The translations under genes and the position numbers were made by a program. Below, in pieces: positions 6,333 through 32,000 of a stretch of DNA of 32,000 nucleotides. Within the stretch, counting starts at the first letter, position 1. Each line of letters begins with the position of its first letter. The stretch comes from an uncultured archaeon (lineage in GTDB: Archaea; Iainarchaeota; Iainarchaeia; Iainarchaeales; CSSED10-239), in assembly GCA_964463155.1 (NCBI GenBank), contig CAYXAY010000001.1, positions 30,001-62,000 of the forward strand, read 5' to 3'. The notes below the pieces were generated by a model. The model was not told the origin of the DNA, did no database searches, and saw only the letters and a program-made list of their open reading frames with translations.

Positions 6333-6344
6333 GACGTTATCTCT

Positions 6345-16403: not shown

Positions 16404-16478
16404 TTCCATATATATAATATTCTCTATGGATAGTTTTGGTAATAGATTAACTGTTTAGTTTATAATGTGGTGAATAAG

Positions 16479-17693: not shown

Positions 17694-17756
17694 GCCATTT
17701 GGAGCAACAAAATCTATTTAAATATCTTTTTTTGCATATATTATTTGTGACTAGCT

Positions 17757-18296
17757 ATGGATGATTCTAAAAAGATTCTAGACCCTATAAGGGTAAAAAT
17801 TTTATCTTCTATGAGAAAAGAGAGAGTGTTAGTTCCAAATATCAGGCAATTAAAAAAACACACCGGCTTTCACAGAGCAACAATAAAGTCATCAATTGAC
17901 TTTATGGAAAAGCAAGGGTTAATCAAACATTACATTCCATCATTAAACGCATCAATTGCAGGTTATGGTCTAAGGGTCTGGACATATCTTCAAATGGATA
18001 TCTCAAATAAAAAAACAAATGTAAATCTAAGAAAAATAGTAACATCAATACCAAATGTCTATCATTGTTCAGAAGTCATTACAGAAAAAGGATACAATAT
18101 AGCAATAGGCTATCTTGCAAAAAACGTTGAAGATTATTACAATAATGTTCAAAGACAATATTTTTATAATTCACCAGAAGTATACGACCTAGTAAAAGAA
18201 AGAACAGTATTTTATCTTTCTGATCCCACCTATGTCCAGAAAAGCCACAGCAGCACTTTGATTGATATTCTTGAAAAAGAACAAGGAATAGAATAA
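17757..18296 (+). CDS. winged-helix transcriptional regulator, Lrp/AsnC-like architecture
   Basis: 179 aa. The N-terminal HTH is IRQLKKHTGFHRATIKSSIDFMEKQGLIK. An alpha/beta domain follows (VWTYLQMDIS...IPNVYHCSEVITEKGYNIAIGYLAKNVEDY) that resembles the RAM/AsnC_trans_reg fold. Family assignment is tentative. Confidence 0.45.
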   Translation: MDDSKKILDPIRVKILSSMRKERVLVPNIRQLKKHTGFHRATIKSSIDFMEKQGLIKHYIPSLNASIAGYGLRVWTYLQMDISNKKTNVNLRKIVTSIPNVYHCSEVITEKGYNIAIGYLAKNVEDYYNNVQRQYFYNSPEVYDLVKERTVFYLSDPTYVQKSHSSTLIDILEKEQGIE

Positions 18297-18299
18297 TAT

Positions 18300-19100
18300 A
18301 TGGAAATAGAAATTAATTATGAATTATCTGCAGGAAAGAATGCAGAAAACAAATACAAGGGTAGAAACAGATATCTAGAAAAGATTAAAGGAATAGATAA
18401 AGCCCTAGAGATAACCAAACAAAAGACGTGTCTACTAGAGAAAGCTAAAGAAAAAAAGCCAAAGTTTGAGATTAAGAAAAAAGAAGAAAGAACAAAAGAA
18501 TGGTATGAAAAATTCAACTGGTTTTTTACAACAAATGGTTTTTTAGTGATTGCAGGACGTGATGCAAAGAATAATGAGCAGCTTGTAAAAAAGCATTTCT
18601 CAGTTAACGACCTTTATTTTCACGCAGATATCCATGGTGCACCCCACATAGTTATTCAAAACCCTAAAAACCTAGAGATTAAAGATATTGACAAACAAGA
18701 AGCAGCAAACTTTGCTGCCATTCATTCTTCTGCTTGGTCAAGCGGGATCTTTTCTGTTGATGTTTATTCTGTTGGCTATGGCCAAGTGTCTAAGACCGCA
18801 GGTTCTGGAGAGTCTCTTGGTACGGGTGCTTTTGTTATAAGAGGCAAAAGAGAATATTATAAAAAAATCAATCTTGAAATTGCTGTTAGTTTTGACAACA
18901 AAAGAAAAGTTGTAATTGCAGGTCCGGTATCTGCAGTTTCAGTAGTATCCAAAGATTTCTTTGTTTTGGTTCCGGGAAAGACCAAAAAATCAGATATATG
19001 TAAAGAGCTAAAGGAAAGATTTTCAAAGAAAAACATTTCTCTTTCTGTTGATGAAGTAATGTCGAACCTCCCACCAGGAGATTGTGATATAAAGGTATAA
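18300..19100 (+). CDS. NFACT-R (DUF814) domain protein, short Rqc2/NEMF-related form
   Basis: 266 aa. A coiled-coil N-terminus is followed by WFFTTNGFLVIAGRDAKNNEQLVKKHFSVNDLYFHADIHGAPHIVI, the NFACT-R signature. The NFACT-N domain is absent. Confidence 0.7.
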   Translation: MEIEINYELSAGKNAENKYKGRNRYLEKIKGIDKALEITKQKTCLLEKAKEKKPKFEIKKKEERTKEWYEKFNWFFTTNGFLVIAGRDAKNNEQLVKKHFSVNDLYFHADIHGAPHIVIQNPKNLEIKDIDKQEAANFAAIHSSAWSSGIFSVDVYSVGYGQVSKTAGSGESLGTGAFVIRGKREYYKKINLEIAVSFDNKRKVVIAGPVSAVSVVSKDFFVLVPGKTKKSDICKELKERFSKKNISLSVDEVMSNLPPGDCDIKV

Positions 19101-19560
19101 AAAGCAATTGTAAATAAATTATTTAGTGATAATCGCGGCTTCAAGAAACACAGAGCTTTTTAAAACGCAAAAACAAATAAGGTAAGCCGTTGACGATAAT
19201 GTGATGACAGAAAGACAAGCGATAAATCATCTTAATAAGATTAACCTACAACTGAAAAAAGAAAAAGGCACATATCAAGAAGCTCTTGCAGTAATGCACA
19301 CACAAACAAAAATTCTGAATTCTAGGAAACTATAAAAAGATTTCCAGATAGCTTTCAAAAAAACATAAAAATCGCTTTTAAAAATTCTAAGTTTACCTAT
19401 TCAGATTATAGAAAATATTTATTACCAGTTGTAGATAGACTTGACACCAACATTAATTAATTATCTACAGAAATAGAGTTTAGAAAAAAAAGCAGTCTTA
19501 AAACCAAAATCTGTTTCTAAAAGAGAAATAAAAAGAAAATATTTTGCTAAATTGTTTTTT

Positions 19561-20169
19561 CTAAAATATACCTGTAAAGAAAATCAATATTACTGGTATT
19601 GCTATTAATATTCCCCAGACAAGAGGATTCCATCTCATTATTTTTGCACCATCAAGTGGTCCAAACGGTATAAGATTAAAGAAAGCAATCCACAGATTAA
19701 TAAAAACACCGTAACTAACAATCAACAATGGCGCCCCAAAGATTGCTGCAATAAAAAACAAAAATGCCATTATAAGATTTGATACAGGCCCAGCAACAGA
19801 AATTATTCCGTCTTCTTTAACACTATGGCTTTTCCCAAAGATATAAACCGCCCCAGGAGCAACAAAAACTAATCCTAGAAGTCCAGCTAGAGTAATCCCT
19901 GCCAAAAGAAAAACCGGCCACATAACAAATCTTGCTTGTGCCCCCAGATGTATCCCAGTATATTTGTGTGCCATTTCATGCACAATAAAGCTTGTTGCAG
20001 TGATAAGCAGGCTTAGCCCAAACTGTGTGAAAAAACCACTCCAGGTAAAAACAAACTGCTTGGTCGTTAGATAATCTAAAAGGCTATAGTTGCCAAGAAC
20101 AATTGTAAAACATAACGATATTGTAAGCCACGCAATTATTAAATCAAAAATTTCGGAATGCTGTTTCAT
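19561..20169 (-). CDS. site-2 protease family (M50) intramembrane metalloprotease
   Basis: 202 aa polytopic protein with HEMAHK (HExxH) in a TM helix and NLIPFGPLDG (NxxPxxxLDG). Confidence 0.8.
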   Translation of the reverse strand: MKQHSEIFDLIIAWLTISLCFTIVLGNYSLLDYLTTKQFVFTWSGFFTQFGLSLLITATSFIVHEMAHKYTGIHLGAQARFVMWPVFLLAGITLAGLLGLVFVAPGAVYIFGKSHSVKEDGIISVAGPVSNLIMAFLFFIAAIFGAPLLIVSYGVFINLWIAFFNLIPFGPLDGAKIMRWNPLVWGILIAIPVILIFFTGIF

Positions 20170-20171
20170 GT

Positions 20172-20921
20172 TTATTCTTTCTTTAAAATTATTTTATTAA
20201 AATTATTGTTTATCTTTTCTTTTAGTTCTTCTAAATCAATATTATTTTCTTTTGATAAAACCTCATATGATTTTTTTATATCAGTTATTGCTATTGGTTT
20301 TCCGTCAACGGAAATAGGATAATCTGTTTCTATAAAAATCTGATTTAAGTAGTCATTAATATTATGTATGCTTGGTTTATTAAATCTGATTGTTAGATAG
20401 TATTTTCTATCAAGTGCGGTTTCTATTTCTTTTTCACTTCCAGTAAACCAATGCAAGATAATTGGGAATCCGTCCCTGCTTTCAAGGATTTCAAGAACTG
20501 GCCCTGTCGCATATCTTGAGTGTACAATTACTGGCAGATTGTTCTCTTTAGCAATATCTAGTTGTTTTTCAAAAACAATTTTTTGCTCTCTTCTAAGCTC
20601 AAAATCGTTTGTAACCTTGTAATCTAAACCTATCTCTCCAATCGCCACAATTTTGTTTGTGTCTTCAAAGATTATTTCTAGGTAATTAAGTGTGTCTTTT
20701 AATCCCTCTCTAACAACAACATCAGGACAAAGTCCATAGGCAAAATAAAGTCCAGGTATATTTTCTTTTCTAAAGTTTTCAAGTTTTCTATAGCTTTCAA
20801 TATCAGCATTGTTAGCCACCGCAAGTATTTCTTCTTTTAAAAAGGTTTCCTTAAGATACTCCAAAGACAATTTATCATAATGACAATGAATGTCTATGAA
20901 TTTTAAATCTTTATTCTCCAT
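20172..20921 (-). CDS. tatD: TatD-family metal-dependent hydrolase
   Basis: 249 aa. It has FIDIHCHY (HxH), GEIGLDY, PVIVHSR, ILHWFTGS and ETDYP boxes in TatD order. Confidence 0.8.
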   Translation of the reverse strand: MENKDLKFIDIHCHYDKLSLEYLKETFLKEEILAVANNADIESYRKLENFRKENIPGLYFAYGLCPDVVVREGLKDTLNYLEIIFEDTNKIVAIGEIGLDYKVTNDFELRREQKIVFEKQLDIAKENNLPVIVHSRYATGPVLEILESRDGFPIILHWFTGSEKEIETALDRKYYLTIRFNKPSIHNINDYLNQIFIETDYPISVDGKPIAITDIKKSYEVLSKENNIDLEELKEKINNNFNKIILKKE

Positions 20922-20951
20922 ATATAATATATGACTATACTTAATTTTAAA
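20901..20951. promoter_or_regulatory. interleaved divergent promoter region of tatD and the methyltransferase gene
   Basis: The two start codons are 9 bp apart (CAT 20919-20921, ATG 20931-20933). TTTTAAAT at 20901-20908 sits about 27 nt upstream of ATG 20931. TTTAAAATTAA (reverse strand of 20941-20951) sits about 25 nt upstream of the tatD start. Both lie inside the partner gene. Confidence 0.35.
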
Positions 20952-21560
20952 GACTATAGTTTAGACATTCCTGCAAGAGTCTATCTTCCAAGCGATGACA
21001 CTGATTTAATGATAGAGGTTTTAGAAGAAGAGATAATAAAACCAAACAAGCATTTTAGGTCAGCAATAGAGATTGGTTCGGGTAATGCCTTCTTGTCTTT
21101 GGAGATTTATCCACAAGTAGATGAATTAATTTCTACAGACATCAATCCGGTAGCCGTTGATTATCTTTTAAATGTTAAGGAAAAGTATAATCTAGAAAAG
21201 CAAAAAATAGTTTATTCAAATCTTTTTGATTCTGTTGGAGATAAGAAATTTGACTTAATAGTCTTTAACCCGCCATATGTTCCATCAGGAGAAATTCTTG
21301 ATGAGGACGATGACGAGATTAATGGTTATGATTTGGCGATTAATGGTGGCGAAAATGGAAGAGAAATTATTAATAAATTCATAAAACAGCTTCCAGAGCA
21401 CTTGGCAGACAAAGGAGTTTGTTATCTTTTAGTGTCTTCTCAAAACGACCCGCTTGATGTTATAGAAAATCTAAAATTAGAAAACCTAAAGTCAGAAATA
21501 ATTCTTTCAAAAAAGATTTTTTTTGAAGAATTATTTGTTATTAAGATTACAAGGAAATAA
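20931..21560 (+). CDS. HemK/Mtq2-like N5-glutamine (release factor) methyltransferase
   Basis: 209 aa. It has VYLPSDDTDLMIEVL, the SAM-binding EIGSGNAF and the catalytic VFNPPYVP (NPPY). Confidence 0.75.
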   Translation: MTILNFKDYSLDIPARVYLPSDDTDLMIEVLEEEIIKPNKHFRSAIEIGSGNAFLSLEIYPQVDELISTDINPVAVDYLLNVKEKYNLEKQKIVYSNLFDSVGDKKFDLIVFNPPYVPSGEILDEDDDEINGYDLAINGGENGREIINKFIKQLPEHLADKGVCYLLVSSQNDPLDVIENLKLENLKSEIILSKKIFFEELFVIKITRK

Positions 21561-21564
21561 AATT

Positions 21565-22671
21565 ATGCCAGCAAATGTAAGTTATGAGTATGTGGCTGCC
21601 CAAAAGAAATATGATGAGGCAAAGACCGATGAAGAGAAATTGATAGCTCTTCAAGGAATGCTTTCTGCAGCCCCCACTCACAAAGGCTCTGAAAATATGC
21701 GCAGAGATATTAGTAAAAGAATATCAGAGTTAAAAATAAAAATGGAAAAAAGAGCAGCTGCTCTTAAAAAAACAGGACATTCAATAGGCATAAAAAAAGA
21801 AGGGGCGGGTCAAGTAGTTATTGTCGGGCTTGCAAATTCTGGCAAAAGCACATTTCTTACAAAATTTACAAATGCAAAACCAGTAATCGCCCCCTACCCT
21901 TACACAACAACAAAGCCAGAGGTTGGCGTCCTCAACTACGGTGGCGCATTAATCCAACTAGTTGAGATTCCGTCTTTTCTAGAATCTAAAGAAATGTCAA
22001 ACCAAATATTTTCAATAGTCAGAAGTGCTGACGCCATAATTCTTACAATCCCAAACAACGACAAAACACACAGAGATAAATTAATACAACTTCTAGAATC
22101 CCAAGATATCTATGTCACGAGACCAAAACCAAAAGTTGATTTCAACAAAAGCCAATATCCCGGAATAACATTTATCAATGAGCAAAACCTAATGGTTCCT
22201 AAAGAACAAGCAATCTCTTTGTTAAAAGATTCAGGCTATCGTTCACACACAGTAATTCTTGGACAAAAGACAACCCGTAACGACCTTTTACTATTAATTA
22301 ATCCACGAGCAGTCTACCATCCAGCAATCATGATTTTTATGCCTTTTACAAAAGACAAACCAGAAACAAATATTTACAAAAACATAAAACCATTTGATTT
22401 CAAAGCTGAAACAAAGATTACAGAGGAAATTTTCAAGATGGTAAACAAAATTATAGTCTACACAAAAAAACCAGGGCAAAAAGCAGACCTGACAGATCCT
22501 CTGGTTCTTGAAAAAGGAACAACAGTTAAAGTTGCAGCAAAGCAAATACACAAATCCATCTCAAAAGAGCTAAAATCAGCAAAGGTCTGGGGCAGCACAA
22601 GGTTTCCTGGCCAAAATGTTTCAAAGGATTATCAACTTCAAGACAAAGACATAGTTGAATTTGTAGCTTAA
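21565..22671 (+). CDS. DRG/Obg-family GTPase with C-terminal TGS domain
   Basis: It has G1 GLANSGKST, YPYTTTKPEVGVL (G2 region) and a C-terminal TGS-like VYTKKPG...LEKGTTVKVAAKQIHKSI...AKVWG. The start is set at ATG 21565 (MPANVSYEYV), 4 nt after the upstream stop, not at the track start 21523. Confidence 0.85.
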   Translation: MPANVSYEYVAAQKKYDEAKTDEEKLIALQGMLSAAPTHKGSENMRRDISKRISELKIKMEKRAAALKKTGHSIGIKKEGAGQVVIVGLANSGKSTFLTKFTNAKPVIAPYPYTTTKPEVGVLNYGGALIQLVEIPSFLESKEMSNQIFSIVRSADAIILTIPNNDKTHRDKLIQLLESQDIYVTRPKPKVDFNKSQYPGITFINEQNLMVPKEQAISLLKDSGYRSHTVILGQKTTRNDLLLLINPRAVYHPAIMIFMPFTKDKPETNIYKNIKPFDFKAETKITEEIFKMVNKIIVYTKKPGQKADLTDPLVLEKGTTVKVAAKQIHKSISKELKSAKVWGSTRFPGQNVSKDYQLQDKDIVEFVA

Positions 22672-22768
22672 ATCAGTTCTGTTTCTTAAAAAACAACATT
22701 TATAAAAGAAATACACATATATTATTTTAGAAAAATATATTTTATGAATAGTTATAATTAGGTAAAAA

Positions 22769-23659
22769 ATGCCGACAACAAAAAAAGACACAAATGTAAA
22801 GGCAGATACAAATTTAGAAGAAAAACTATACAAGCTATTCCTTCCAATAACTGACAGTTTTAAATCCAAAGAACTTGAAGAAAAGTTAATGCAAGCAGAC
22901 ATACAGGAAGAGTTGCCAAATTATCTATCCAAATATTTATTTTACGCATTATTTATACCCTTGTTGTTCATAATACTTGGAACAATAGTATTAATTGCCC
23001 TTGACCAGGTAAGCTATCTAAAGATATTGTTTGTAATTTGTTTTATTTCAATGTTTGGAATATTGATTTATGCAATAATTAATCCATATTTGATGGTCAG
23101 TACAAAAGTAGGTAACATAAAAAACAATCTGTCTCTTGCAATTCTTAGCATGTCAAGTGTTGCAGAGTCTAGTGCTCCGCCAGAAGCGATGTTTCACACA
23201 ACTGCATTAAAAACAGAAACGCCACATATTGGAAAAGAGTTTGAGAAAATAAACAGATATATGGATTTAGGATTGTCACTTCCTGAAGCAATAAACCAAT
23301 TATGTAATAAAACCCCGTCTGCAGATCTTAAAAAATTTCTAACAGAATTAAACTCAAACATAGAAGCCGGTGGATCGTTGTCTGAATTCATGAAAAAAAA
23401 AGCAGAGCATGCTCAGTTCACTTACAAATTAATGCTTGATAACCTAAACAAGAAAGCAGAAACATTTGGGGACATTTATTCAGCAATAGTTATTGCAGGT
23501 CCTTTATTTCTTTTCTCATCAATCATGCTTTTGGGTATGATTGGAGGGGGTACTGGACTAGCGGGGCTTAGTATTGAGGCGCTATTGGTTATCGGAATCT
23601 TTGGGATAGTTCCATTAATCAATATTTTTTTTATAATAATTTTACAATTGGCAGCATAG
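22769..23659 (+). CDS. type IV pilus/archaellum platform protein, single T2SSF domain (FlaJ/TadB-like, part 1)
   Basis: 296 aa. A cytoplasmic T2SSF helical domain (LSLAILSMSSVAESSAPPEAMF...GLSLPEAINQLCNKTPSADLKKFLTELNSNIEAGGSLSEFMKKKAE) is flanked by TM helices. Confidence 0.75.
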   Translation: MPTTKKDTNVKADTNLEEKLYKLFLPITDSFKSKELEEKLMQADIQEELPNYLSKYLFYALFIPLLFIILGTIVLIALDQVSYLKILFVICFISMFGILIYAIINPYLMVSTKVGNIKNNLSLAILSMSSVAESSAPPEAMFHTTALKTETPHIGKEFEKINRYMDLGLSLPEAINQLCNKTPSADLKKFLTELNSNIEAGGSLSEFMKKKAEHAQFTYKLMLDNLNKKAETFGDIYSAIVIAGPLFLFSSIMLLGMIGGGTGLAGLSIEALLVIGIFGIVPLINIFFIIILQLAA

Positions 23660-23669
23660 GAGAAAAACA

Positions 23670-24485
23670 ATGAAATTTAATCCAAGAATTGAATATTTGC
23701 TAGATGCGGCAGCAAAAGGAGCAATAGGTTCACTAATACTTGGAATAATTCTATTAAATACAAAATTTTTCATATTCTGTATCTTTCCAGTTGTAATAGC
23801 AATTGGAGTAGCATCAATACTTTACACAAAGAAACTAAGGTCTCTTGAAAGCAATCTTTTTGTTTTCTTAGATGATTTAAAGGACTTATTACAAGGCGGT
23901 ATGAACATTGTCACAGCAATGGAAATAATTTCAGAACACGATTATGGCGCATTAAATCCTTATCTAAAAAGAATTGCAGCACAAGTCAAGATTGGTATTC
24001 CGTTTGATGTTTCATTAGTGGAGGTGTTTTCAGAAGTTGACAGTCCATTGTTCAATAATATTGCAAATGTAATCTCAGAAACAATGAAATATGGTGGAAA
24101 CCTCATAAAAATTTTTGGAGCAGTTTCAAATTATGTAAAACTGATTGATGAGATGGGTGAGGAAAGAAGAGCAAAAACATTTTCAACGGTATTTTCTTCA
24201 TATTTCATGTTTTTTATTTTTATTGCAATTATCCTTACTATCCAAATAGTATTTCTGCCGATGCTTCAATCAAATCAAATAAGTACATCACCAGGCACAT
24301 CCATTTCAGATATTAACTTTAATGCATATTTCCTTTATCTCTTGATTATTCAAGCAGGCTTTGCTGGTCCAATAATAGGTAAGATTTCTGAAGGAAACTC
24401 AATAGCAGGAATAAAACATTCAATTATATTACTGGTAATCTCAATACCAATCTATGTGTTGATTTCAATGTTATTTGTAAAATAA
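23670..24485 (+). CDS. type IV pilus/archaellum platform protein, single T2SSF domain (FlaJ/TadC-like, part 2)
   Basis: 271 aa. It has a second T2SSF-like domain (LLQGGMNIVTAMEIISEHDYGALNPYLKRIAAQVKIGIPFDVSLVEVF...ISETMKYGGNL) with flanking TMs. An AGGAG SD lies at 23658-23662, 7 nt before the ATG and 10 nt after the upstream stop. Confidence 0.7.
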   Translation: MKFNPRIEYLLDAAAKGAIGSLILGIILLNTKFFIFCIFPVVIAIGVASILYTKKLRSLESNLFVFLDDLKDLLQGGMNIVTAMEIISEHDYGALNPYLKRIAAQVKIGIPFDVSLVEVFSEVDSPLFNNIANVISETMKYGGNLIKIFGAVSNYVKLIDEMGEERRAKTFSTVFSSYFMFFIFIAIILTIQIVFLPMLQSNQISTSPGTSISDINFNAYFLYLLIIQAGFAGPIIGKISEGNSIAGIKHSIILLVISIPIYVLISMLFVK

Positions 24486-24490
24486 GGTTA

Positions 24491-24527
24491 AGTTTATATA
24501 AATATATGAAATATATATTAATAGGAG
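24491..24527 (+). promoter_or_regulatory. promoter/leader region of the first pilin gene (TATA-like boxes and AGGAG)
   Basis: It contains TTTATATAAA (24493-24502), ATATATATTAA (about 24510-24520) and AGGAG (24523-27). Which TATA element is used cannot be decided from sequence. Confidence 0.35.
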
Positions 24528-24542
24528 AAATAATGGGATAAT

Positions 24543-25019
24543 ATGTTATTAAATATTAGATTAAATAAAAAAGGCGTTTCACCATTAATTGCAACCATTC
24601 TACTTGTCGCAGTATCCTTGTCTCTTGCAGGAATACTATATTCTTGGGCATCACAAAACGCAAAAGATACAGTTAACAGCGTTACAGAAACTTCCAAAAA
24701 ATGGAGAGATTGTAGTGCGATAAACATGTACATAGAGTATGGCTGTACTTATGATGCGACCACAGGAATAAGCTTTATACTTAACGATTCATCAACAGTA
24801 AATATTGATGATAACCTAACAGTAAGCGTGATTGATATAAACAATGCAATTAAAAGTTCAACGTTTGCTCCAAACTTTTCAGGAAGAGCAATGGTTATTA
24901 CCCGTGCAATACTTTCTGACCCAAATGCACTTGATGGTTTGAATAAACCATTACAAAGAGTAAGAGTTTATGTTGACGGTTGTCCAGATAGGGCGGCATC
25001 AACAACTACTTGCAACTAA
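24543..25019 (+). CDS. archaeal type IV pilin-like protein 1 (Pilin_N / class III signal peptide)
   Basis: N-terminus is MLLNIRLNKKG/VSPLIATILLVAVSLSLAGILYSW: a short basic leader, a small residue, then the conserved hydrophobic helix of archaeal pilins (AVSPVIgviLmv type). The ectodomain has C-x10-C and a C-terminal C-x9-C-N-stop. Confidence 0.75.
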   Translation: MLLNIRLNKKGVSPLIATILLVAVSLSLAGILYSWASQNAKDTVNSVTETSKKWRDCSAINMYIEYGCTYDATTGISFILNDSSTVNIDDNLTVSVIDINNAIKSSTFAPNFSGRAMVITRAILSDPNALDGLNKPLQRVRVYVDGCPDRAASTTTCN

Positions 25020-25032
25020 ATAAAAATAATCT

Positions 25033-25512
25033 ATGAAACTAAAAGCAATAGACGCATTAATAACAACAATCTTGATTGTTGTAGTTTCAATAATTCTAAT
25101 AACTATAGTTCTTGCCTGGAGTAAAAATTTTACAACAGAAGGAGTAAACAAGGCAAACAACTTAATAGACGAAAAATGCAATCAAGCGACAATAATGATT
25201 GCTGATTGTAGAATAATAGATGATGGTAATATCGTCTTTCAAATAAAAAACACAAGCAATAACTTTGATTTTGAAAGCACAGACATTTTCAAAGTTTCAG
25301 TCTTTAATGATTCAGGAACAATGGATGCGGAAAAAGAAATAATCGTGGTTAACGGCACATGGAATGGTCTAGCAACTGGAAACACAGCAATAGCAAAGCT
25401 TTCACCAACTACAACTTCCTTAACATCAGGTTCTGGGGCATTAGTTAACCTGACAGTAAGATCAACTATCTGCCCTCTAGTTTCAACAACCACCAGAGGC
25501 TGTCACAGATAA
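25033..25512 (+). CDS. archaeal type IV pilin-like protein 2
   Basis: N-terminus is MKLKA/IDALITTILIVVVSIILITIVLAW. It is a paralogue of the neighbours and has the same four-Cys pattern (CNQATIMIADC, CPLVSTTTRGC). Several N-x-S/T sequons are present. Confidence 0.75.
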   Translation: MKLKAIDALITTILIVVVSIILITIVLAWSKNFTTEGVNKANNLIDEKCNQATIMIADCRIIDDGNIVFQIKNTSNNFDFESTDIFKVSVFNDSGTMDAEKEIIVVNGTWNGLATGNTAIAKLSPTTTSLTSGSGALVNLTVRSTICPLVSTTTRGCHR

Positions 25513-25575
25513 AAGCTTTTTAAATGTTTTTGTTATATGGTAATATAAGTATATAACATTTTAGGAGGAAAATTT
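25513..25575 (+). promoter_or_regulatory. internal terminator/promoter/SD region between pilin genes 2 and 3
   Basis: It contains T5 tracts (CTTTTTA, GTTTTTG), then the TATA-like ATAAGTATATAAC, then a strong AGGAGG SD at 25563-25568, 7 nt before ATG 25576. Confidence 0.4.
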
Positions 25576-26028
25576 ATGAATAAAAAAGCAATAGAACCAT
25601 TGATTGCAACTATACTTTTAGTTGTTATTGCAGTGATTCTTGTTGTAATTGTTCTTGCATGGGGCAGAGACTTTACAGGCGAAGGACTAAACAAAGTAAG
25701 CGGGATACTGGACCCAACTTGTGATGAAGCAACAATAGCAATATCAAATTGTGATTATAATGACGCAGAAAATACAATAACATTCTTTATTAAAAACACA
25801 AGTAACAGCTATGTATTTTCAACAAACGCATTTGTTGCAAACATTATTGATGACAGTAATGCCTTAAATAATGCCTTGGATACATCAGTTACTTCTAGTA
25901 CAATAAATCCGGGAGCATCAGCGTTAGGTCAAATGTCAACAACACTTTCAGCTACAAGAGTAACAGTTGCAGTAAGATCAAGTGCTTGTCCAAACATTGC
26001 AACAGACACGGTAAAGAATTGCCAATAA
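25576..26028 (+). CDS. archaeal type IV pilin-like protein 3
   Basis: N-terminus is MNKKA/IEPLIATILLVVIAVILVVIVLAW. It has the four-Cys pattern (CDEATIAISNC, CPNIATDTVKNC) and the strongest SD of the four. Confidence 0.8.
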   Translation: MNKKAIEPLIATILLVVIAVILVVIVLAWGRDFTGEGLNKVSGILDPTCDEATIAISNCDYNDAENTITFFIKNTSNSYVFSTNAFVANIIDDSNALNNALDTSVTSSTINPGASALGQMSTTLSATRVTVAVRSSACPNIATDTVKNCQ

Positions 26029-26049
26029 AATAGTAAATTTGAATAAAAT

Positions 26050-26502
26050 ATGACTTCAAGAAGAGCAGTTTCCCCAATAATAGCAACAATACTTCTTGTT
26101 GTTATTGCACTAATCTTAGTTGGCATACTTCTTTCTTGGGGTCAAAATTTTGTTCAGAGAAGCACTTCTGATGCAGACAACGCAATAGACAGAAAATGCA
26201 TAGGCGCAGATATTTCTTTTAACAATTGTGATTACAATAGTCTCGGTACAGGAACACTGACATTTATCATAGTCAATTCAGGAAAAGTAGATTTTTCTTC
26301 AGACGAGAACCTTAATCTAATTTTGATAGACGATGATCAAGATCTAAATAACGAGAATCTAAACATTCTTGACGGCAGTGCCTTTAATAGAGGGGATTCA
26401 AGGAAAATAACAATCAACAACTATTCAGCAACCCCACCAGTTGAAGTAACAATAAGAAGCAGTCAATGCAATAATTTTTTTGTCAAAACAACTTGTAATT
26501 AG
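26050..26502 (+). CDS. archaeal type IV pilin-like protein 4
   Basis: N-terminus is MTSRRA/VSPIIATILLVVIALILVGILLSW. It has the four-Cys pattern (CIGADISFNNC, CNNFFVKTTC). Confidence 0.8.
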   Translation: MTSRRAVSPIIATILLVVIALILVGILLSWGQNFVQRSTSDADNAIDRKCIGADISFNNCDYNSLGTGTLTFIIVNSGKVDFSSDENLNLILIDDDQDLNNENLNILDGSAFNRGDSRKITINNYSATPPVEVTIRSSQCNNFFVKTTCN

Positions 26503-27002
26503 ATTTTGTCTATTTCTAATAGATTTATTTTCTTTTCTTTATTAACTATTGCTAGCACAAAGTTTGCATGTATGGTTTTTGCAAGCCTTTGAGATTTTAT
26601 AAGATTTACAGAATCGATTTTACCGGGAGCAATAACATCAACAACCATCTCTGTGTGCGTATGCTCTCCATTCTTTGATTTCTTATATACTCTAAAATCA
26701 AAACCAAACAAGTTTCCTTCCTTAACAACAAACCCTTTCTCTGTAAGTTCTCTAAACACCAAAAGCTTGTCTTTAAAGCCATTAATTTCTATCTTACAAA
26801 TTTTTTCAAGTTTCTTTAAATCAATCTTTTTGTTCTTTTTGTCAATAAGACTAATCTTTTTCTTCTCAAGAAAATAAAAACATTCAAAAAGATCAATACA
26901 AAAGTCAAGTCCTTTCTTAAACCCAAACCCTTTCTGTGTCAATTGGCTCTTAAGATTATTGTCTTTTACAATTCCTAAATTATTTTCCAGTATTACTTTC
27001 AT
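26499..27002 (-). CDS. endA: tRNA-splicing endonuclease, single-unit (alpha4-like) form
   Basis: 167 aa. The C-terminal catalytic domain has FDFRVYKKSKNGEHTHTEMVVDV and SQRLAKTIHANFVLAIV (Tyr/His/Lys triad context). Length fits the homotetrameric type. Confidence 0.7.
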   Translation of the reverse strand: MKVILENNLGIVKDNNLKSQLTQKGFGFKKGLDFCIDLFECFYFLEKKKISLIDKKNKKIDLKKLEKICKIEINGFKDKLLVFRELTEKGFVVKEGNLFGFDFRVYKKSKNGEHTHTEMVVDVIAPGKIDSVNLIKSQRLAKTIHANFVLAIVNKEKKINLLEIDKI

Positions 27003-27017
27003 TTATCTCACCAGCAG

Positions 27018-27329
27018 TCACTTATATAAAGTAAACAGGTTTCTGTTAACCTCATAAAACAAACCAATCCTAACTCCCGCGTCAATCCAGCCATAAGCAT
27101 AAGAATAGGATGCAAGTGCTCTTGAAAAGTCTCCTTTTTCTTCAAGAGTTTTACCATCTGCAAGGTAATTCTTTGCCATCTCAAGATAGTTGTCTGCTAT
27201 GTCTTTTAAGAAAGACTCGTTTTCAATATTTATTTTTATAGTACTAAGTGCTTTTTCCAAAAGCCCCCTATATTTCAAACAATATTCTTTAACATCTGTA
27301 TCCATTAACACCATCTCTTTCAATATCAT
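27018..27329 (-). CDS. DUF357 family protein
   Basis: The helical protein ends GDFSRALASYSYAYGWIDAGVRIGLF, which matches my recollection of the archaeal DUF357 signature (A.GWlDAGvRlG). The start is uncertain: in-frame ATGs at 27329, 27314 and 27305 all overlap the dph5 3-prime end. Confidence 0.5.
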   Translation of the reverse strand: MILKEMVLMDTDVKEYCLKYRGLLEKALSTIKINIENESFLKDIADNYLEMAKNYLADGKTLEEKGDFSRALASYSYAYGWIDAGVRIGLFYEVNRNLFTLYK

Positions 27330-28026
27330 TTAGTTGCCCACAAACAATCAAGCTTTGTGGGAAGCTTTTGCTTTCTATTCTCTTATAGTACTTAAAATCA
27401 AAAGTAATTATTTCTTGCGTTTTACTTGCTGCTCCGCAGATAGTAACACAAAAAACGTCCTTTAACTGATTTCCGTTCTCCTTATCTATGTCTTCAAGTA
27501 TCTGGCAGGCTTCCTTTACAGTCATAAACCTGTTCTTGTCTGTCTTTATGTCAAGAAGGCACAGCGTGTGTGCATTTATCTTTAAATTATCAATTATGCA
27601 ATCATAAAAGCTTGTAGGCCGATAGTTTCCTTCTGGATAAACAATGCTTGTTGTCTTTCCAAATTTATACTCAGACAATCCAGCGATTCCACGATAACTA
27701 AAAACAGATATTCCAGGGATAATGGTTGTTTCAATGCCTGCCGTTTTAGCATGCTCAATCAATGTAAAATGTGTTGTTGCAGAAAAGGGGTTTCCAATAA
27801 CCAAAAGACAGCAATTGTCCTTTAAAAAAACAAGTTCCTGCTCAAGTTCTTTTCTGTCCAAAAGATTTATTTTCTTTTCAAGAAAGGTTTCAAGGTCAGA
27901 TATTTGTCCTTCAGAAAATATGTTTGTATAATTATCAATATATATCTTGTTACTGCTTTTGATTGCCTGAATTGCCTCAAGAGTCAATTGCTTGACATTA
28001 AGTCCAATTCCAATTATGTAAAACAT
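27289..28026 (-). CDS. dph5: diphthine synthase (Dph5, tetrapyrrole-methylase fold)
   Basis: It has MFYIIGIGLNVKQLTLEAIQAIKSSNKIYIDNYT, LLVIGNPFSATTH and GISVFSY. The start is set at ATG 28026 (MFYIIGIG), 1 nt after the upstream stop, rather than the track start at 28047. Confidence 0.85.
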   Translation of the reverse strand: MFYIIGIGLNVKQLTLEAIQAIKSSNKIYIDNYTNIFSEGQISDLETFLEKKINLLDRKELEQELVFLKDNCCLLVIGNPFSATTHFTLIEHAKTAGIETTIIPGISVFSYRGIAGLSEYKFGKTTSIVYPEGNYRPTSFYDCIIDNLKINAHTLCLLDIKTDKNRFMTVKEACQILEDIDKENGNQLKDVFCVTICGAASKTQEIITFDFKYYKRIESKSFPQSLIVCGQLNDIERDGVNGYRC

Positions 28027-28027
28027 T

Positions 28028-28426
28028 CTAATTACTATAAACTCCAATTTCTATATATATCTTATTATTAGAATTATTAATATACTTTATGGAATTAGAC
28101 ATTACTTTTTTATATCCAATATTATTGCCAATCTCTTTTCTTTTGTTGTTTATCCTAATATACCCTGGTGTTTCTGGAAAAAGCAAAAGATAGTTTTTCT
28201 CAAGAACATCAATTCCAGAGATTTTAAGATATTGAGAAGTAACAAGCAAGTCTCCGATTTTTTGTTGTCTTAAAAGTTCAATGTTTTTTTCAGAAATATC
28301 TGTGCGGCTACCAGGAAAAACAAGAATAAGCAAAGAAAGAAAGATTAACGCAAAAAGTCCATCAACCACAAACATCTGTGCCTTGTTATTTACATTTAAA
28401 AAACTCAAGCGTCTCAAAGCTTCCAT
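28028..28426 (-). CDS. prepilin-like small protein D (class III signal-like N-terminus)
   Basis: 132 aa. N-terminus is MEALRRLSFLNVNNKAQ-MFVVDGLFALIFLSLLILVF: a basic leader, K-A-Q, a hydrophobic helix and an acidic residue 5 positions after the Q. A G-rich SD (GAGGGGGG) lies 9 nt upstream of the ATG. It overlaps the upstream gene by 41 nt. Confidence 0.5.
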   Translation of the reverse strand: MEALRRLSFLNVNNKAQMFVVDGLFALIFLSLLILVFPGSRTDISEKNIELLRQQKIGDLLVTSQYLKISGIDVLEKNYLLLFPETPGYIRINNKRKEIGNNIGYKKVMSNSIKYINNSNNKIYIEIGVYSN

Positions 28427-28793
28427 CTACAACAACCCCCCTCACAATAACAGAATCCGTTTCTTTTAGAGAATCAAATAAAGTCTTTCCGGACAAACCA
28501 ATTTTGCAGATCTTTTTTCTATCAATAGTAGATATCTTAGAAACATCCAAAACATTCTGATAACAAAGACTTTCATGATTTAAATATGAAAACGCAAGAT
28601 AATTGCAATCAGTTATCAGCCTATCAACATATAATAAGTTTTCAAGTTCCTTTATGTCTTTTTGGGTTTTAAGATTATGATTAACAAAGCCTTCCAAAAG
28701 AACCATCTCCAGATAAACAATAAACACAACAACCAATGCAAGGAAAAGAACATCAAGTACTAGTATCTGTGCCTTTTGACTTTCTATTTTCAT
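28386..28793 (-). CDS. prepilin-like small protein C (class III signal-like N-terminus)
   Basis: 135 aa. N-terminus is MKIESQKAQ-ILVLDVLFLALVVVFIVYL, the same K-A-Q/hydrophobic/Asp layout as protein D. It has four Cys in the ectodomain and a GGTGG SD just upstream. It overlaps the upstream gene by 41 nt. Confidence 0.5.
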   Translation of the reverse strand: MKIESQKAQILVLDVLFLALVVVFIVYLEMVLLEGFVNHNLKTQKDIKELENLLYVDRLITDCNYLAFSYLNHESLCYQNVLDVSKISTIDRKKICKIGLSGKTLFDSLKETDSVIVRGVVVDGSFETLEFFKCK

Positions 28794-28959
28794 ATCCCAC
28801 CAAATATTCTTCCTTCATTCTTTCAATTACTATTCTGTTACTTGGAATCCTTTCAATCTTTTCTTTAAGATTAATATTAACATCAACAAAGAATCCAATA
28901 ATTATTATTATAATCAAAACACACAATATAAACTCCAAAGTCACAATTCCTTTTTTCAA
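28753..28959 (-). CDS. prepilin-like small protein B (KKG/IVTLEF type)
   Basis: 68 aa. N-terminus is M-KKG-IVTLEFILCVLIIIIIIGFF, with Glu at +5 after the Gly as in EppA-type archaeal and bacterial type IV prepilins. The TTG start overlaps the upstream TGA (TTGA). It is preceded by a strong GAGGTGAT SD 9 nt upstream. Confidence 0.5.
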   Translation of the reverse strand: MKKGIVTLEFILCVLIIIIIIGFFVDVNINLKEKIERIPSNRIVIERMKEEYLVGYENRKSKGTDTST

Positions 28960-29459
28960 GTGTAAACAATCACCTCAATACCGTAATTCTTAGGAAACGA
29001 AAAATGCGATTTGTTAAAGCTTGTTAAGACATCAAAGCAAAGAAATTTGTTTTTGTTAATGCCATTAGTTATTGTGTATCTCTTGACATAGATGTTAGGA
29101 GCTGGCCTAAGAACAATGACTTTTGAGATGACTTGCAGTTCTTCAAAACGTACCCTGCTTTTGTTATTAGTCTTGATATCCAAGATATACCAGTCTTCGT
29201 TTTCTGTTTCTTTTAAGTGTTTTACAATGCTATTGTTAATCTGCGTGTTAAGGGTAACGGGCTCTATATTTTTGGAATACAATTCGTTTTTTACAATTTC
29301 TTCAAAATTGATTGCAGCGCTTTGCTTTTTTGTGTTTTGAATCTTTGCTATCAGGAAATCTGAGTCCGGCTCAATACGGTTACCCGCAACAGCATAAACA
29401 AAAACAGGAACAAACAACAAAACTCCAAGGCTCAAAAAGCCCTTATATTTTGATTTCAT
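28956..29459 (-). CDS. secreted or prepilin-like protein A (first gene of the cluster)
   Basis: 167 aa. The N-terminus MKSKYKG-FLSLGVLLFVPVFVYAVAG could be a class III or an ordinary Sec signal peptide. It is followed by a beta-rich domain. A TTAAATAAA TATA-like box lies about 30 nt upstream of the ATG. Confidence 0.45.
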   Translation of the reverse strand: MKSKYKGFLSLGVLLFVPVFVYAVAGNRIEPDSDFLIAKIQNTKKQSAAINFEEIVKNELYSKNIEPVTLNTQINNSIVKHLKETENEDWYILDIKTNNKSRVRFEELQVISKVIVLRPAPNIYVKRYTITNGINKNKFLCFDVLTSFNKSHFSFPKNYGIEVIVYT

Positions 29460-29621
29460 TAGATATCTTATAAATTTTTCCCTTTATTTAACCCGCAGCT
29501 TGGTTTTTTTGTGTTTTTGAAGCTAATGTCGTTAGTCATACAATTTTACAAAAATTCTAACAAATCTTTTTAAATACCTCTATCTACAATAAATATATTG
29601 ATTATAAAGGGGAAATAAAAC

Positions 29622-30710
29622 TTGAAAAAAAACATCTTTGTAAAGGATGTCACTGAAAAAGTAACAAGCATCTTTAAAGATGAGTCTGTCTTTTACCCAA
29701 GCTATTTCCCTGAGGACATAAAATCAAGGGATAAAGAAATCCAAGAATTAAGCTATAACCTTAGGCCAATCTCTGAAAACAAAAAAGCTCGAAATCTTTT
29801 GTTGTTTGGTCCTCCCGGAACAGGAAAGACATTAGTTTCAAAATATGTTTTAAAGCAGTTTTTAGAGTTCACGCAAAAAGGGAAATTCATTTACATAAAT
29901 GCAATTGAGGACAATACAAGATTTGCTTTGTATTCTAAGCTTTTGTCTCTTTACAACTCTCCTCTCCCAAGAAGGGGGTTAGGCATTGACGAGATTCTTT
30001 TAAGAATAAAAGAAGAGATGTCAAAAACAGACTTTGTTCCAATAGTTGTTATTGATGAGGTTGACAAACTTGAAAAATCAGAAATCTCAACAATACTTTA
30101 TGATCTCTCTAGAACGGAAGTTGGAAAGAAGTATTTTGCTTTAATACTTATAACAAACAATAGGGTGTTTCAGTTTTCCTTAGACCCAAGGGTTCAAAGT
30201 TCTCTTTTCTTGACAGAGGTTGAGTTTAAAAGATATTCTCCAATTGAGTTAAAGGAAATCTTAAAGGAAAGAATAGAGTATGGTCTGATTTCTAGTGCAA
30301 TATCAGAAGACAATCTAGGCTACATCACAGGTTATGCTGCAAAGAATGGGGGAGATGCAAGGATAGCAATTGATATCCTTTATAAGTCTGCAAAACTTAC
30401 AGAAAAGAAAGGAAACCTAAAAATAGATAAACAAACAATTCTAGAGTCAGAAAAATTGATTGATGCAGTAAAACTTTGCGAAAAACTAAACTACATTGAT
30501 TCAAGAGAAAAAGAAATCATAAAAGTGATTCCTGAAATTGGAATAGATAGTGGAACACTTTACAAAAAGTTTTCAAAAGACTCAGACAGAACAATAAGAA
30601 GGCATCTTGATAATCTAGAAAACATAGGTCTAATAAAAATCAAGGAAAACATTTCCCAGAAAGGAAAGACAAGAAACATCAGTTTGACATTTAGTAAAGA
30701 GTTATTATAA
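29622..30710 (+). CDS. cdc6: Orc1/Cdc6 replication initiator, paralogue 2
   Basis: 362 aa. It has Walker A LFGPPGTGKT, Walker B VVIDEVD, the sensor GGDARIAIDILYKSA and a C-terminal winged helix (RTIRRHLDNLENIGLI). The only available start is TTG 29622, with an AGGGG SD about 10 nt upstream. Confidence 0.9.
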   Translation: MKKNIFVKDVTEKVTSIFKDESVFYPSYFPEDIKSRDKEIQELSYNLRPISENKKARNLLLFGPPGTGKTLVSKYVLKQFLEFTQKGKFIYINAIEDNTRFALYSKLLSLYNSPLPRRGLGIDEILLRIKEEMSKTDFVPIVVIDEVDKLEKSEISTILYDLSRTEVGKKYFALILITNNRVFQFSLDPRVQSSLFLTEVEFKRYSPIELKEILKERIEYGLISSAISEDNLGYITGYAAKNGGDARIAIDILYKSAKLTEKKGNLKIDKQTILESEKLIDAVKLCEKLNYIDSREKEIIKVIPEIGIDSGTLYKKFSKDSDRTIRRHLDNLENIGLIKIKENISQKGKTRNISLTFSKELL

Positions 30711-30742: not shown

Positions 30743-31492
30743 TTACTCATTATCTACTCTTGGCGCCAAGTAGTATCTGACTGCAGCAGAACCGATTGTG
30801 TAGTTTAGTTCTATTGGCATGTCGTCTTTTAGCTTCAAGGTTATTGTTGTTTTTGCGTTTTTAATCATGTTTTGAAGATAGTCTAATGGGAACATTGCTT
30901 TTGCCTTTTTTCCTGAAATAACAATATCTCCTGCTTCAACTTCTTGCTTGAATTTTCCTTTAGAGCTTTGTGTCTCCAAAATGAACTTTTCGTCTCCAAC
31001 CCTTAATGTTATATGAGAACTAAAAAGAGCAGCGTCCTTGATTCCTGCTAATAATTGGTCAGAACCAACCTGCACAGTCACATCAAATGGTATCTGTGGA
31101 AGTGGATGTTGCTGGTCTGAAACATCAATTAAAGGCATAGTAAAGGATCTTTTGGATTTTCCAATAAACTCAATCTGTATGCTTGGCTTTCCTTCCGTTA
31201 TCTCAATTGAAAGTTTATCATCTGCATTTGAGTGTGATAAAATCTGTAAAAGATTATTAATATTAATACCAAACGACAGCTTGCTTGTGCTTTCCTGCCC
31301 AATATCAGTAATGAATTCTTCAAAGGCCTCTTTTGGCATTACAAAGTCAACAAGACTTATTTGGCTAGGGTCTGTTGCTCTTAAATAGAATTTGTTCTTG
31401 TCAATGGTAAACAAGCCTTCATTAATCAATACTCCAATAGCATCTATACATTTATAAAATTCCTTTGCGTCCTTTATAACTAATTTTATCAT
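30743..31492 (-). CDS. pcn: DNA polymerase sliding clamp PCNA
   Basis: The N-terminus MIKLVIKDAKEFYKCIDAIGVLINEGLFTIDKNKFYLRATDPSQISLVDFVMPKEAF and the two-domain length of about 249 aa are typical of archaeal PCNA. ATG 31492 is chosen over GTG 31501 because a GAGGTG SD (31499-31504 on the reverse strand) lies 6 nt upstream. Confidence 0.9.
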   Translation of the reverse strand: MIKLVIKDAKEFYKCIDAIGVLINEGLFTIDKNKFYLRATDPSQISLVDFVMPKEAFEEFITDIGQESTSKLSFGININNLLQILSHSNADDKLSIEITEGKPSIQIEFIGKSKRSFTMPLIDVSDQQHPLPQIPFDVTVQVGSDQLLAGIKDAALFSSHITLRVGDEKFILETQSSKGKFKQEVEAGDIVISGKKAKAMFPLDYLQNMIKNAKTTITLKLKDDMPIELNYTIGSAAVRYYLAPRVDNE

Positions 31493-31509
31493 ACAATCCA
31501 CCTCATATA

Positions 31510-32000
31510 TTATTGAAACAAAACTAATTTAATATATCCTATATATGGAATCCGCCCTATTTTTTTACCTTTTACTATGTTTTCTTTTATTGGATATAGA
31601 TTAATACAGGGCTTTTGCGCAATAATCTTTTCATTGACAATAGCGACTTCACAGTCCTGGTCAATAAAAACATTGGTTTTGTGATTGTCCCCTTTTGTAA
31701 GGTAAAAAACACCGTCTTTAGCATTAATCTTTACAATTGCTCTATGTATGATGTCTCTCCCAGTTTTATTTGAAGGATAAACAATAATATCATTTTTCCT
31801 GTCAATAGCATCCAAAAGAGAAATGTTTTTGTCTGCAATCTTTATGCTGTCTGCTTCTAGCAACCCATATTGGTTTTTAGAATAACTAATCTCTGCAAAC
31901 TCAGAAAGGTCCTTTTTTGCAACATTTTGATTAATGGTTACTTCTTCAACCGTTAGTTCCTTAGGATTTGTAAGAACAACAACATCTCCCCGATAAAGGT
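31510..32000 (-). CDS. signal peptidase I, archaeal/eukaryal Sec11 type (5-prime end outside window)
   Basis: The frame stays open past the track start (TTG 31863) to the window edge. The extension reads LYRGDVVVLTNPKELTVEEV...YG before LLEADS... The GDVVV box, IIHRAI (His box) and YLTKGDNHKTN (GDN box) occur in signal-peptidase order. The catalytic Ser region is outside the window. Confidence 0.65.
   Translation of the reverse strand, partial: LYRGDVVVLTNPKELTVEEVTINQNVAKKDLSEFAEISYSKNQYGLLEADSIKIADKNISLLDAIDRKNDIIVYPSNKTGRDIIHRAIVKINAKDGVFYLTKGDNHKTNVFIDQDCEVAIVNEKIIAQKPCINLYPIKENIVKGKKIGRIPYIGYIKLVLFQ

Follow-up and report, generated by a model that had tools for sequence, protein, structure and literature searches.

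An archaeal locus that encodes the platform and a set of candidate pilins of a type IV filament, with neither an assembly ATPase nor a prepilin peptidase beside them, raises the question of whether it specifies an apparatus of its own kind or part of an ordinary machine whose motor lies elsewhere. The pilus genes in question occupy positions 22769-29459 of the window, i.e., the whole 32-kb stretch of DNA that was analysed, and consist of two T2SSF half-platform genes, four paralogous PilA-type pilin genes and four genes for class III-like small proteins. We regard the locus, at a probability of about 80%, as supplying the platform and pilins of a single canonical archaeal type IV filament machine of Iainarchaeota (DPANN), with the ATPase encoded elsewhere. 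It gives no indication of a machine of a new kind.

Split platform and PilA-type pilins

The gene platA (22769..23659, plus strand) encodes a FlaJ/TadC-like protein of 296 aa with about four TM segments predicted from hydropathy. It matched Pfam T2SSF (4.3e-14, 53 bits; cut-off 25.2) and aligned with positions 9-221 of 555 in the NCBIfam ArlJ profile, corresponding to the N-terminal half of the ArlJ/FlaJ profiles. The 271-aa product of platB (23670..24485, plus strand), which starts after a spacing of 10 nt, matched T2SSF (1.4e-16, 61 bits; cut-off 25.2) and UpsF (3e-6) and covered positions 194-447 of 465 in the ArlJ profile, the C-terminal half of the ArlJ/UpsF profiles. Together the two products provide the T2SSF platform of an archaeal type IV filament (TFF) system, in the two-gene form of the System 1/Epd-type pilus. 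Homologues of platA numbered 62 (identity 40-78%), 50 positions of platA were invariant, and platB directly followed platA in every relative compared. A two-gene platform is no novelty here, because it has already been published for the archaeal System 1/Epd-type and for some DPANN systems including 4A (bioRxiv 10.64898/2026.04.22.720090; PMC4858521). The gene upstream of platA encodes a DRG-type GTPase, as identified with Pfam.

Four paralogous pilin genes follow on the plus strand: P1 (24543..25019), P2 (25033..25512), P3 (25576..26028) and P4 (26050..26502). Each product contains four cysteines, all of which were invariant in an alignment of 49 sequences. The N-terminus reads KKG/VSPLIATILLV in P1 and KA/IDALITTILIVVV in P2, which also carries five N-x-S/T sequons. 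P1 (32.7 bits) and P4 (33.0 bits) scored above the curated cut-off of 20 for the archaellin/pilin N-terminal profile TIGR02537 and thereby possess the conserved N-terminal pilin domain of the PilA/Pilin_N family, while P3 fell slightly below it (19.3 bits) and P2 generated no hit on this profile, with a weak match to UpsA instead. P4 further matched Pfam Pilin_N (PF07790) at 1.8e-4 (22.7 bits, below the cut-off of 25.2) and Arch_flagellin at 4.4e-3. P2 and P3 share 40% identity, and the paralogy of P3 was also detected in a DNA repeat scan, as the repeat family that the scan labelled D1. The P1 family profile matched the N-termini of the solved archaeal pilins 8fk7 (5.4e-6), Iho670 (1.6e-3) and Natrinema PilA2 (3.9e-3), and the AF2 model of P1 (pLDDT 82.8) contained a helix at 14-58 followed by a beta domain. 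Foldseek of this model against PDB generated no pilin match, and its head domain gave weak Ig-like matches only (E of at least 0.035). Taken together, TIGR02537, the profile matches to solved pilins, the modelled helix and beta domain and the motif scan place these proteins among the pilins of archaeal TFF systems. P1 is likeliest to be the major subunit, as it is the best-conserved pilin of the plus arm. Relatives carry three to five pilin copies, a variation due to duplication and not to loss.

Small proteins of the minus arm and their neighbours

The minus strand carries D4 (28956..29459), the first gene of this arm, followed by D3 (28753..28959), D2 (28386..28793) and D1 (28028..28426). 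D4 is a putative minor pilin (KYKG/FLSLGVLLF), the K[KN]K[GA]F motif and hydrophobic N-terminus of which are kept in nine orthologues. D3 is a short Flp/EpdE-like pilin of 68 aa (KKG/IVTLEF, with Glu at +5). D2 (KA/QILVLD, with four cysteines and the conserved N-terminus K[GA]Q-x4-[DE] in its alignment) and D1 (KA/QMFVVD) are further putative minor pilins, and the clade-restricted D1 family comprised only 13 representative clusters among 1.84 billion proteins. All four N-termini show a short basic stretch, then [KR][GA] and a hydrophobic helix. A strict regular expression for the N-terminal pattern matched five of the eight P and D genes, the other 32 genes of the window giving no match, and all eight fit the pattern by eye; class III-type N-termini in the window are confined to the P and D genes. 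The N-termini of D1 and D2 are homologous (hhalign E 7.9e-6) and also formed a DNA repeat (labelled D3 in the repeat scan). In the D3 family, 7 of 11 members matched Pfam PF04021 (Class_IIIsignal) with E up to 0.05 (best 9.9e-7), and D3 of the window generated weak N-terminal matches only, to TadF (0.0018, below the cut-off), ComGE and BasB. The small pilins were not assigned to the Flp, TadE or TadF families of the bacterial Tad/Flp system, to which they showed only sub-threshold N-terminal-helix matches (18.7 bits for TadF against a cut-off of 27.3; 0.017 for Flp1_like in one relative). Profile searches of Pfam, NCBIfam and PDB revealed no Pfam or PDB relative of D1, D2 or D4, and a single-sequence AF2 model of D1 was uninformative (pLDDT 49). 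From their N-termini alone, we infer that D1, D2 and D4 are probably pilins.

Searches of the D-arm families against Pfam, NCBIfam and PDB profiles, and hhalign against the pilin family, generated no match past the N-terminus. This agrees with the earlier note, which had recognised two different pilin families here, as the P and D families showed no resemblance to each other in hhalign. One motor may assemble two filaments, a PilA-type pilus of P1-P4 and a thin Flp/EpdE-type pilus with a D3 shaft, primed by D1, D2 and D4. Besides the unrelatedness of the P and D profiles, the match of the D3 family to PF04021, an Epd-type model, and a predicted mature D3 that, at about 64 aa, would lack a globular head as EpdE and Flp do, are consistent with this. 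Some relatives carry extra Flp-like genes of 62-66 aa (L027, 19595-19783; L029, 19706-19906), and for System 1 a single machine that makes two types of pilus has been proposed in the literature (bioRxiv 10.64898/2026.04.22.720090). However, it is more common for one fibre to contain a mixture of major and minor pilins, and D3 of the window itself scores weakly; two filaments are thus possible but rather unlikely. In its full form, which we offer as a speculation, one ATPase and one split platform at separate loci of a DPANN genome of ~0.8 Mb would build two unlike filaments, an Ig-headed, disulfide-stapled PilA-type one and a headless Flp/EpdE-type one primed by clade-specific minor pilins, as a host-attachment/uptake apparatus.

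Downstream of D1 in the same direction are a diphthine synthase-type gene, a DUF357 gene and endA (26499..28047, minus strand; Pfam TP_methylase, DUF357 and tRNA_int_endo, respectively); the TP_methylase-family gene is read as diphthine synthase, as it was in the earlier note. Coordinates show overlaps of 4-41 nt along D4-D3-D2-D1-dph5-DUF357-endA, including 20 nt between D1 and the start of the diphthine synthase-type gene, and the whole run is like one operon. The previously described list of parts, a split platform with four plus four pilin-like genes, was recovered completely, all 10 genes lying where they had been placed. Its two arms do converge, but the three housekeeping genes are not merely flanked by them, being co-directional with the minus arm. 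The position of endA, DUF357 and the diphthine synthase-type gene was identical in all relatives compared; they are probably passengers co-transcribed with D4-D1 and not pilus parts. Rfam and tRNA scans of the window, a promoter/terminator scan of 22400-29800 and a repeat scan of 16000-30000 revealed nothing relevant. A neighbouring Dus gene is fragmented.

The co-directional and overlapping arrangement with housekeeping genes is also what would be seen if the D-arm proteins were not pilins but ordinary signal-anchor membrane proteins, encoded in one operon together with diphthine synthase, DUF357 and endA. D1, D2 and D4 being without family or structure match, the clade restriction of D1 and the absence of D-arm homologues from the compared DNA of three relatives with a linked ATPase (L008, L034 and L035; see below) point in the same direction. 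We nevertheless consider this improbable, given that class III signals have the very arrangement conserved here, [KR][GA]Q-x4-[DE] before a hydrophobic helix, that the D3 family matches PF04021 and that D1 and D2 have a common N-terminal module. The D arm also lies beside the pilin arm in 18 of 18 genomes, a weak point as the whole neighbourhood is syntenic.

A separate ATPase locus in related genomes

As the earlier note had stated, the window contains neither motor nor peptidase: tblastn with a T2SSE ATPase found nothing in the 32 kb, and neither a GxGD motif nor a Peptidase_A24 match was present, the Pfam scan for the latter covering the other ORFs from 90 aa upwards. In loci L001-L035, as in the window, scans with regular expressions for the GxGD motif and with Pfam A24 detected no class III signal peptidase. 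Neither an ATPase nor an EppA-type peptidase of the kind found in System 1/Epd clusters was present up to 10 kb from the platform, be it in the window or in the 18 related genomes. Because PibD-type peptidases in archaea usually stand alone, a peptidase that is not linked to the locus is no anomaly. Most ATPase-bearing archaeal genomes have a peptidase (PMC4858521).

Eighteen species-representative Iainarchaeota genomes with platA identities of 52-75% show the gene order DRG-platA-platB-pilins/endA-DUF357-dph5-D1..D4/orc1-PCNA, and the locus is conserved across these genomes with its ORFs intact. In distant relatives (L008, L034 and L035; 40-45% platform identity), ATPase, platA and platB form one operon with the ATPase directly upstream. 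The linked locus L035 encodes an Ig-domain adhesin-like protein of 1,196 aa as well as pilin-like proteins and a pilin, and further contains a coiled-coil gene, the ATPase gene and the two platform genes. In the clade of the window, the machine is broken between ATPase and platform. The ATPase locus of this clade contains genes for a TM protein, two pilin-like proteins, a coiled-coil protein and the ATPase, is conserved in L009-L015 and L038, and has no platform gene of its own. Its 123-aa pilin-like gene and coiled-coil gene match those lying immediately upstream of the ATPase in L034, which has the linked form, and the genes upstream of the ATPase are, as judged from sequence, orthologous between the linked and unlinked forms.

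Findings on the ATPase in relatives rest on the best 120 of 510 ATPase matches, and a second ATPase paralogue may be present in these genomes. Among these, ATPase P0119 shared a longest contig of 671,531 bp with platA P0044, and ATPase P0109 one of 281,921 bp with platA P0019. The longest contig of ATPase P0120 (839,632 bp) has the size of the closed Ca. Forterrea multitransposorum genome (accession no. CP045477.1), which carries platform locus L025. A shared replicon was read from identical longest-contig sizes, a match that misled once: the placement of platA P0059 and ATPase P0082 on one 4,249-bp contig was a coincidence, as look-up of the contig gave DRG-platA-platB-P1 and no ATPase. The exact platA of the window was recovered on a 4.5-kb Logan contig only, and P0124, P0097 and P0183, considered as the ATPase of the window's own genome, were from other samples or assemblies. 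P0120 is 675 aa long, with a long N-terminal extension and the T2SSE core in its C-terminal half, and generated only a generic sub-threshold FlaI-like match in NCBIfam. A conserved 325-aa polytopic protein beside the ATPase was rejected as a peptidase candidate, having no Pfam or NCBIfam match. The suggestion that the motor is encoded elsewhere was therefore substantiated in related genomes, where an orthologous T2SSE ATPase occupies a separate conserved, platform-free locus on the same contigs or closed genome, and this ATPase is likely to partner the platform.

In the canonical machine that we favour, platA and platB would jointly form the FlaJ/TadC-type membrane platform, and P1-P4 would be PilA-type subunits with an N-terminal assembly helix and a beta-sandwich head held by two probable disulfides. 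D1-D4 may serve as class III-signal minor pilins that prime, cap or decorate the fibre, D3 being the short Flp/EpdE-type one. Assembly would be driven by a hexameric FlaI/PilB-type ATPase from another locus, the ancestral ATPase-platA-platB operon having presumably been broken between ATPase and platA in this clade so that the ATPase now has a conserved locus of its own, which it shares with two pilin-like genes and a coiled-coil gene. All prepilins are assumed to be processed by a class III signal peptidase whose gene stands alone elsewhere.

Dispersed genes, the reductive nature of DPANN genomes and the fragmented Dus gene nearby could instead indicate a decaying, no longer functional pilus remnant. 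This is very improbable, as none of the ten ORFs is disrupted in the window or in relatives with identities as low as 52%, 50 platA positions and the four pilin cysteines are invariant, and pilin copy number changes through duplication. The non-canonical and undescribed apparatus that the earlier note had offered as its second alternative, ATPase-independent or otherwise, is scarcely credible, even though the window has no ATPase and none occurs at up to 10 kb from the platform in the 18 related genomes: the same genomes possess an orthologous ATPase without its own platform, the ancestral adjacency of ATPase, platA and platB and the orthologous genes upstream of the ATPase persist in relatives, and the platform keeps the cytoplasmic T2SSF domains, which dock the ATPase.

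Relation to known filament systems

Published censuses of archaeal type IV filaments recognise a system by the co-localisation of its ATPase and platform genes, so an Iainarchaeota clade in which the two are separated would be missed or scored as incomplete. No dedicated description of pili in Forterrea or Diapherotrites was found in the literature. The locus defines about ten proteins with class III signals in a genome of very small size; their biological role may be to attach the cell to surfaces or to a host, and the clade-restricted D1, D2 and D4 families and the four-Cys pilins are reasonable targets for work on the ways in which uncultivated DPANN cells adhere to surfaces or hosts.

Among known systems, the locus resembles the System 1/Epd pilus of Methanococcus maripaludis (Makarova clade 1) in its two-gene platform, in several class III-signal pilins including a putative short one of the PF04021/QxSxE type (the D3 family), and in further pilin genes at separate loci. 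It differs in that the Epd cluster includes its ATPase together with EppA, a dedicated 9-TM peptidase, neither of which is linked here, and in that the abundant pilins here are of the PilA/Pilin_N type with an Ig-like head, not of the Epd type. The linked relative L035 is like the DPANN variants of TFF subsystem 4A, which have two platform genes, an ATPase and a pilin, and in many cases also an adhesin, and its gene set fits the published minimal 4A description (bioRxiv 10.64898/2026.04.22.720090), whereas the window contains no adhesin and the ATPase is unlinked in its clade.

The euryarchaeal PilA/PilB-PilC adhesion pili (Haloferax; Makarova clade 2) share PilA-type pilins with an SP(L/V)I(A/G)xxLL N-terminus, multiple paralogous major pilins, an ATPase with a long N-terminal extension (P0120 of a relative) and a stand-alone peptidase (assumed here). 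Unlike in the window's clade, ATPase and tadC stay paired there (PMC4858521), and neither the four-Cys pattern nor the D-arm families are described in those pili. Subsystem 4E of Pyrobaculum and the Sulfolobus bindosome are likewise encoded partly far from the core, with one machine serving remote substrates. In these systems, however, the pilins or binding proteins are remote and the ATPase and platform remain together, while the break here falls between the ATPase and the platform.

Platform and pilin genes of the window

The window (G+C about 32%; no matches in tRNA and Rfam scans of the 32 kb) derives from an archaeon of the Iainarchaeota (Diapherotrites, DPANN), and related proteins and loci include those of Candidatus Iainarchaeum and Ca. 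Forterrea. The coordinates of the ten genes that an earlier note had grouped as a pilus-like system, comprising a split platform and two arms of pilin-like genes, were all exact on re-examination. The platform genes platA (22769-23659, +) and platB (23670-24485, +) each encode a single T2SSF domain, scoring above its Pfam cut-off, and map to the N-terminal and C-terminal half of ArlJ/FlaJ profiles, respectively.

The four PilA-type pilin genes of the plus arm, P1-P4 (24543-26502, +), are paralogues, 28-40% identical, with the N-terminus KK[GA][VI]SP[LI]IATILLVV; P1 and P4 passed the TIGR02537 archaellin/pilin N-terminal model. A P1-family profile built from 49 sequences matched archaeal type IV pilins of solved structure in their N-terminal helices, namely 8fk7 (5.4e-6), Iho670 and Natrinema PilA2. 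The AlphaFold model of P1 (pLDDT 82.8) consists of a 45-residue helix and an eight-strand beta domain, for which Foldseek returned only a weak Ig-like fold. Cys 57, 68, 147 and 157 (P1 numbering) are invariant in the P1 family and the paralogues, with C57-C68 and C147-C157 as probable disulfides. Plus-arm pilin copies number 3 to 5 depending on species (window 24543-26502; L016, L018 and L020-L029 among the loci of relatives), the variation arising from duplicated P2/P3-like genes. P2 has five N-x-S/T sequons, versus one to three in the other plus-arm pilins.

The minus arm (D4, D3, D2 and D1, from 29459 down to 28028, -) encodes four small proteins beginning with a short basic stretch, [KR][GA] and a hydrophobic helix, an arrangement kept in their orthologues; D1-D3 have an acidic residue at +5 or +6. 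Pfam PF04021 (Class III signal peptide) was matched by 7 of 11 D3-family members (best 9.9e-7), and mature D3 would be a headless, Flp- or EpdE-like pilin of about 64 aa. D1 and D2 share an N-terminal module (hhalign E 7.9e-6), beyond which profile searches detected no further relatives; in a set of 1.84 billion proteins, the D1 family accounts for only 13 representative clusters. Profile comparison revealed no relationship between the P and D families. A strict class III-type regular expression matched five of the eight P and D genes; the 32 other genes of the window gave no match. D1, D2 and D4 are regarded as putative pilins from their N-terminal pattern and position. Directly after the D arm lie genes for a diphthine synthase-type protein (TP_methylase family), DUF357 and a tRNA-intron endonuclease, and since gene stops and starts overlap, the D arm and these three housekeeping genes look like one seven-gene transcription unit.

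Genome comparison, which the earlier note had proposed for asking whether the ten genes form a unit, showed that the platform, pilin and D-arm genes recur as one neighbourhood in 18 species-representative genomes (platA identity 52-75%) and several metagenome contigs, in the order DRG-platA-platB-3 to 5 pilins / endA-DUF357-dph5-D arm / orc1-PCNA. No ATPase was present within 10 kb of the platform in any of them. Beyond PCNA, L027 (19175-19783, -) and L029 (19273-19906, -) have two further class III-signal genes, one for a 62-66-aa Flp/EpdE-like pilin (RAQISAEMIIL...) and one for a 131-134-aa pilin (KAQ[IV]SLEYIL...), with no counterpart at that place in the window.

The platform and pilin region of the window is bracketed by two Orc1/Cdc6 paralogues, about 30% identical to each other, and PCNA (16467-17693, +; 29622-30710, +; 30743-31501, -), and in the closed Forterrea genome the platform locus falls inside the final 17 kb of the record. 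A replication origin may lie near the locus; a repeat scan around the pilus region of the window revealed no conspicuous ORB-like repeats.

Location of the probable motor ATPase

The reported absence of a motor ATPase and a prepilin peptidase from the window held, as tblastn with a T2SSE ATPase gave nothing and no GxGD motif was found; Pfam scans of the other window ORFs returned housekeeping families only. Two explanations had been offered, a motor and peptidase encoded elsewhere and shared, or a non-canonical filament system.

Three more distant relatives (L008, L034 and L035; 40-45% identity) carry pilin-like genes, a coiled-coil gene, an ATPase gene (about 700-830 aa), platA and platB in one run. 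In L035, a gene for a 1,196-aa protein carrying bacterial Ig-like domains (68-3658, +) lies upstream of the pilus genes, and the ATPase reading frame (6034-8675, +) appears interrupted near its 3' end, since a different frame encodes the C-terminal segment (8325-8675). When the ATPase of this linked form was used as query, orthologues of about 670 aa were found in the unlinked clade, among the best 120 of 510 matches. Their locus (for example L011 7738-14326, with the same neighbours in L009, L013-L015 and L038) encodes a TM protein of ~320 aa, two pilin-like proteins (~120 and ~155 aa), a ~115-aa coiled-coil protein and the ATPase, flanked by Sec61-beta on one side and a MetAP/L11/NusG/SecE/FtsZ block on the other, and contains no platform gene. 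Genes for a ~440-aa secreted, C-terminally anchored protein and a ~320-aa polytopic membrane protein are convergent on it. The upstream and convergent neighbour proteins had no family matches and may be further parts of the machine. The 123-aa gene and coiled-coil gene of this remote locus have their matches in L034 directly upstream of the ATPase, indicating that the break in an ancestral operon fell between the ATPase gene and platA.

Platform and ATPase were judged to reside on one replicon in relatives from matching longest-contig figures: 671,531 bp for both platA P0044 and ATPase P0119, 281,921 bp for both platA P0019 and ATPase P0109, and 839,632 bp for ATPase P0120. The last figure equals the size of the closed genome of Ca. 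Forterrea multitransposorum, in which the platform locus is present as well. These genomes may have a second ATPase paralogue.

The explanation by genes encoded elsewhere is thus supported for the ATPase, whose recovered orthologues occupy a separate conserved locus in related genomes. Its peptidase part found no such counterpart, as GxGD-type motif scans located no class III signal peptidase in the window or loci L001-L035. As a rule, PibD-type peptidases are encoded by stand-alone genes. A peptidase is present in most genomes that carry an ATPase (PMC4858521). A non-canonical system was not supported, given the ATPase orthologues at their own locus and the linked, ancestral-type operon in relatives.

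Relation to known archaeal filament systems

Archaeal TFF System 1 (Epd-type: methanogens, Thermococcales, DPANN) is characterized by two-gene platforms, which are found in clade 2 and certain DPANN 4A systems as well (bioRxiv 10.64898/2026.04.22.720090; PMC4858521). Pilin loci at a distance are a known feature of Epd, subsystem 4E and the bindosome (including bioRxiv 10.64898/2026.04.22.720090), which the present system resembles in having a part encoded at a remote locus; only the split of the ATPase-platform pair itself, stable across a clade, is unusual. The system combines two platform genes with a candidate PF04021-type pilin, yet its main pilins are PilA-type; further mixed features are the long N-terminal extension of the ATPase and the Ig-domain adhesin of one linked relative. 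Its candidate assignments are System 1, System 2 and subsystem 4A. The system of the window is a known type of machine with a minor organisational twist, and we infer adhesion or host attachment as its function.

Other genes of the window

A 148-aa polytopic protein (3297-3743, -) passed the NCBIfam TIGR04178 exosortase/archaeosortase signature (27 bits; cut-off 23) and showed weak pacearchaeosortase and ArtF similarity. Two ORFs (11484-11852, +; 12034-12360, +) cover consecutive stretches of the dihydrouridine synthase (Dus) model: the first matched positions 7-106 (1.8e-16), the second 187-254, weakly and under the Pfam cut-off (9.1e-3). The pair looks like one fragmented Dus gene, whether a pseudogene or the product of an assembly frameshift. 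A 117-aa ORF adjoining PCNA (31510-31863, -) had no Pfam match and by eye looks like the C-terminal part of a type I signal peptidase (GDN...).
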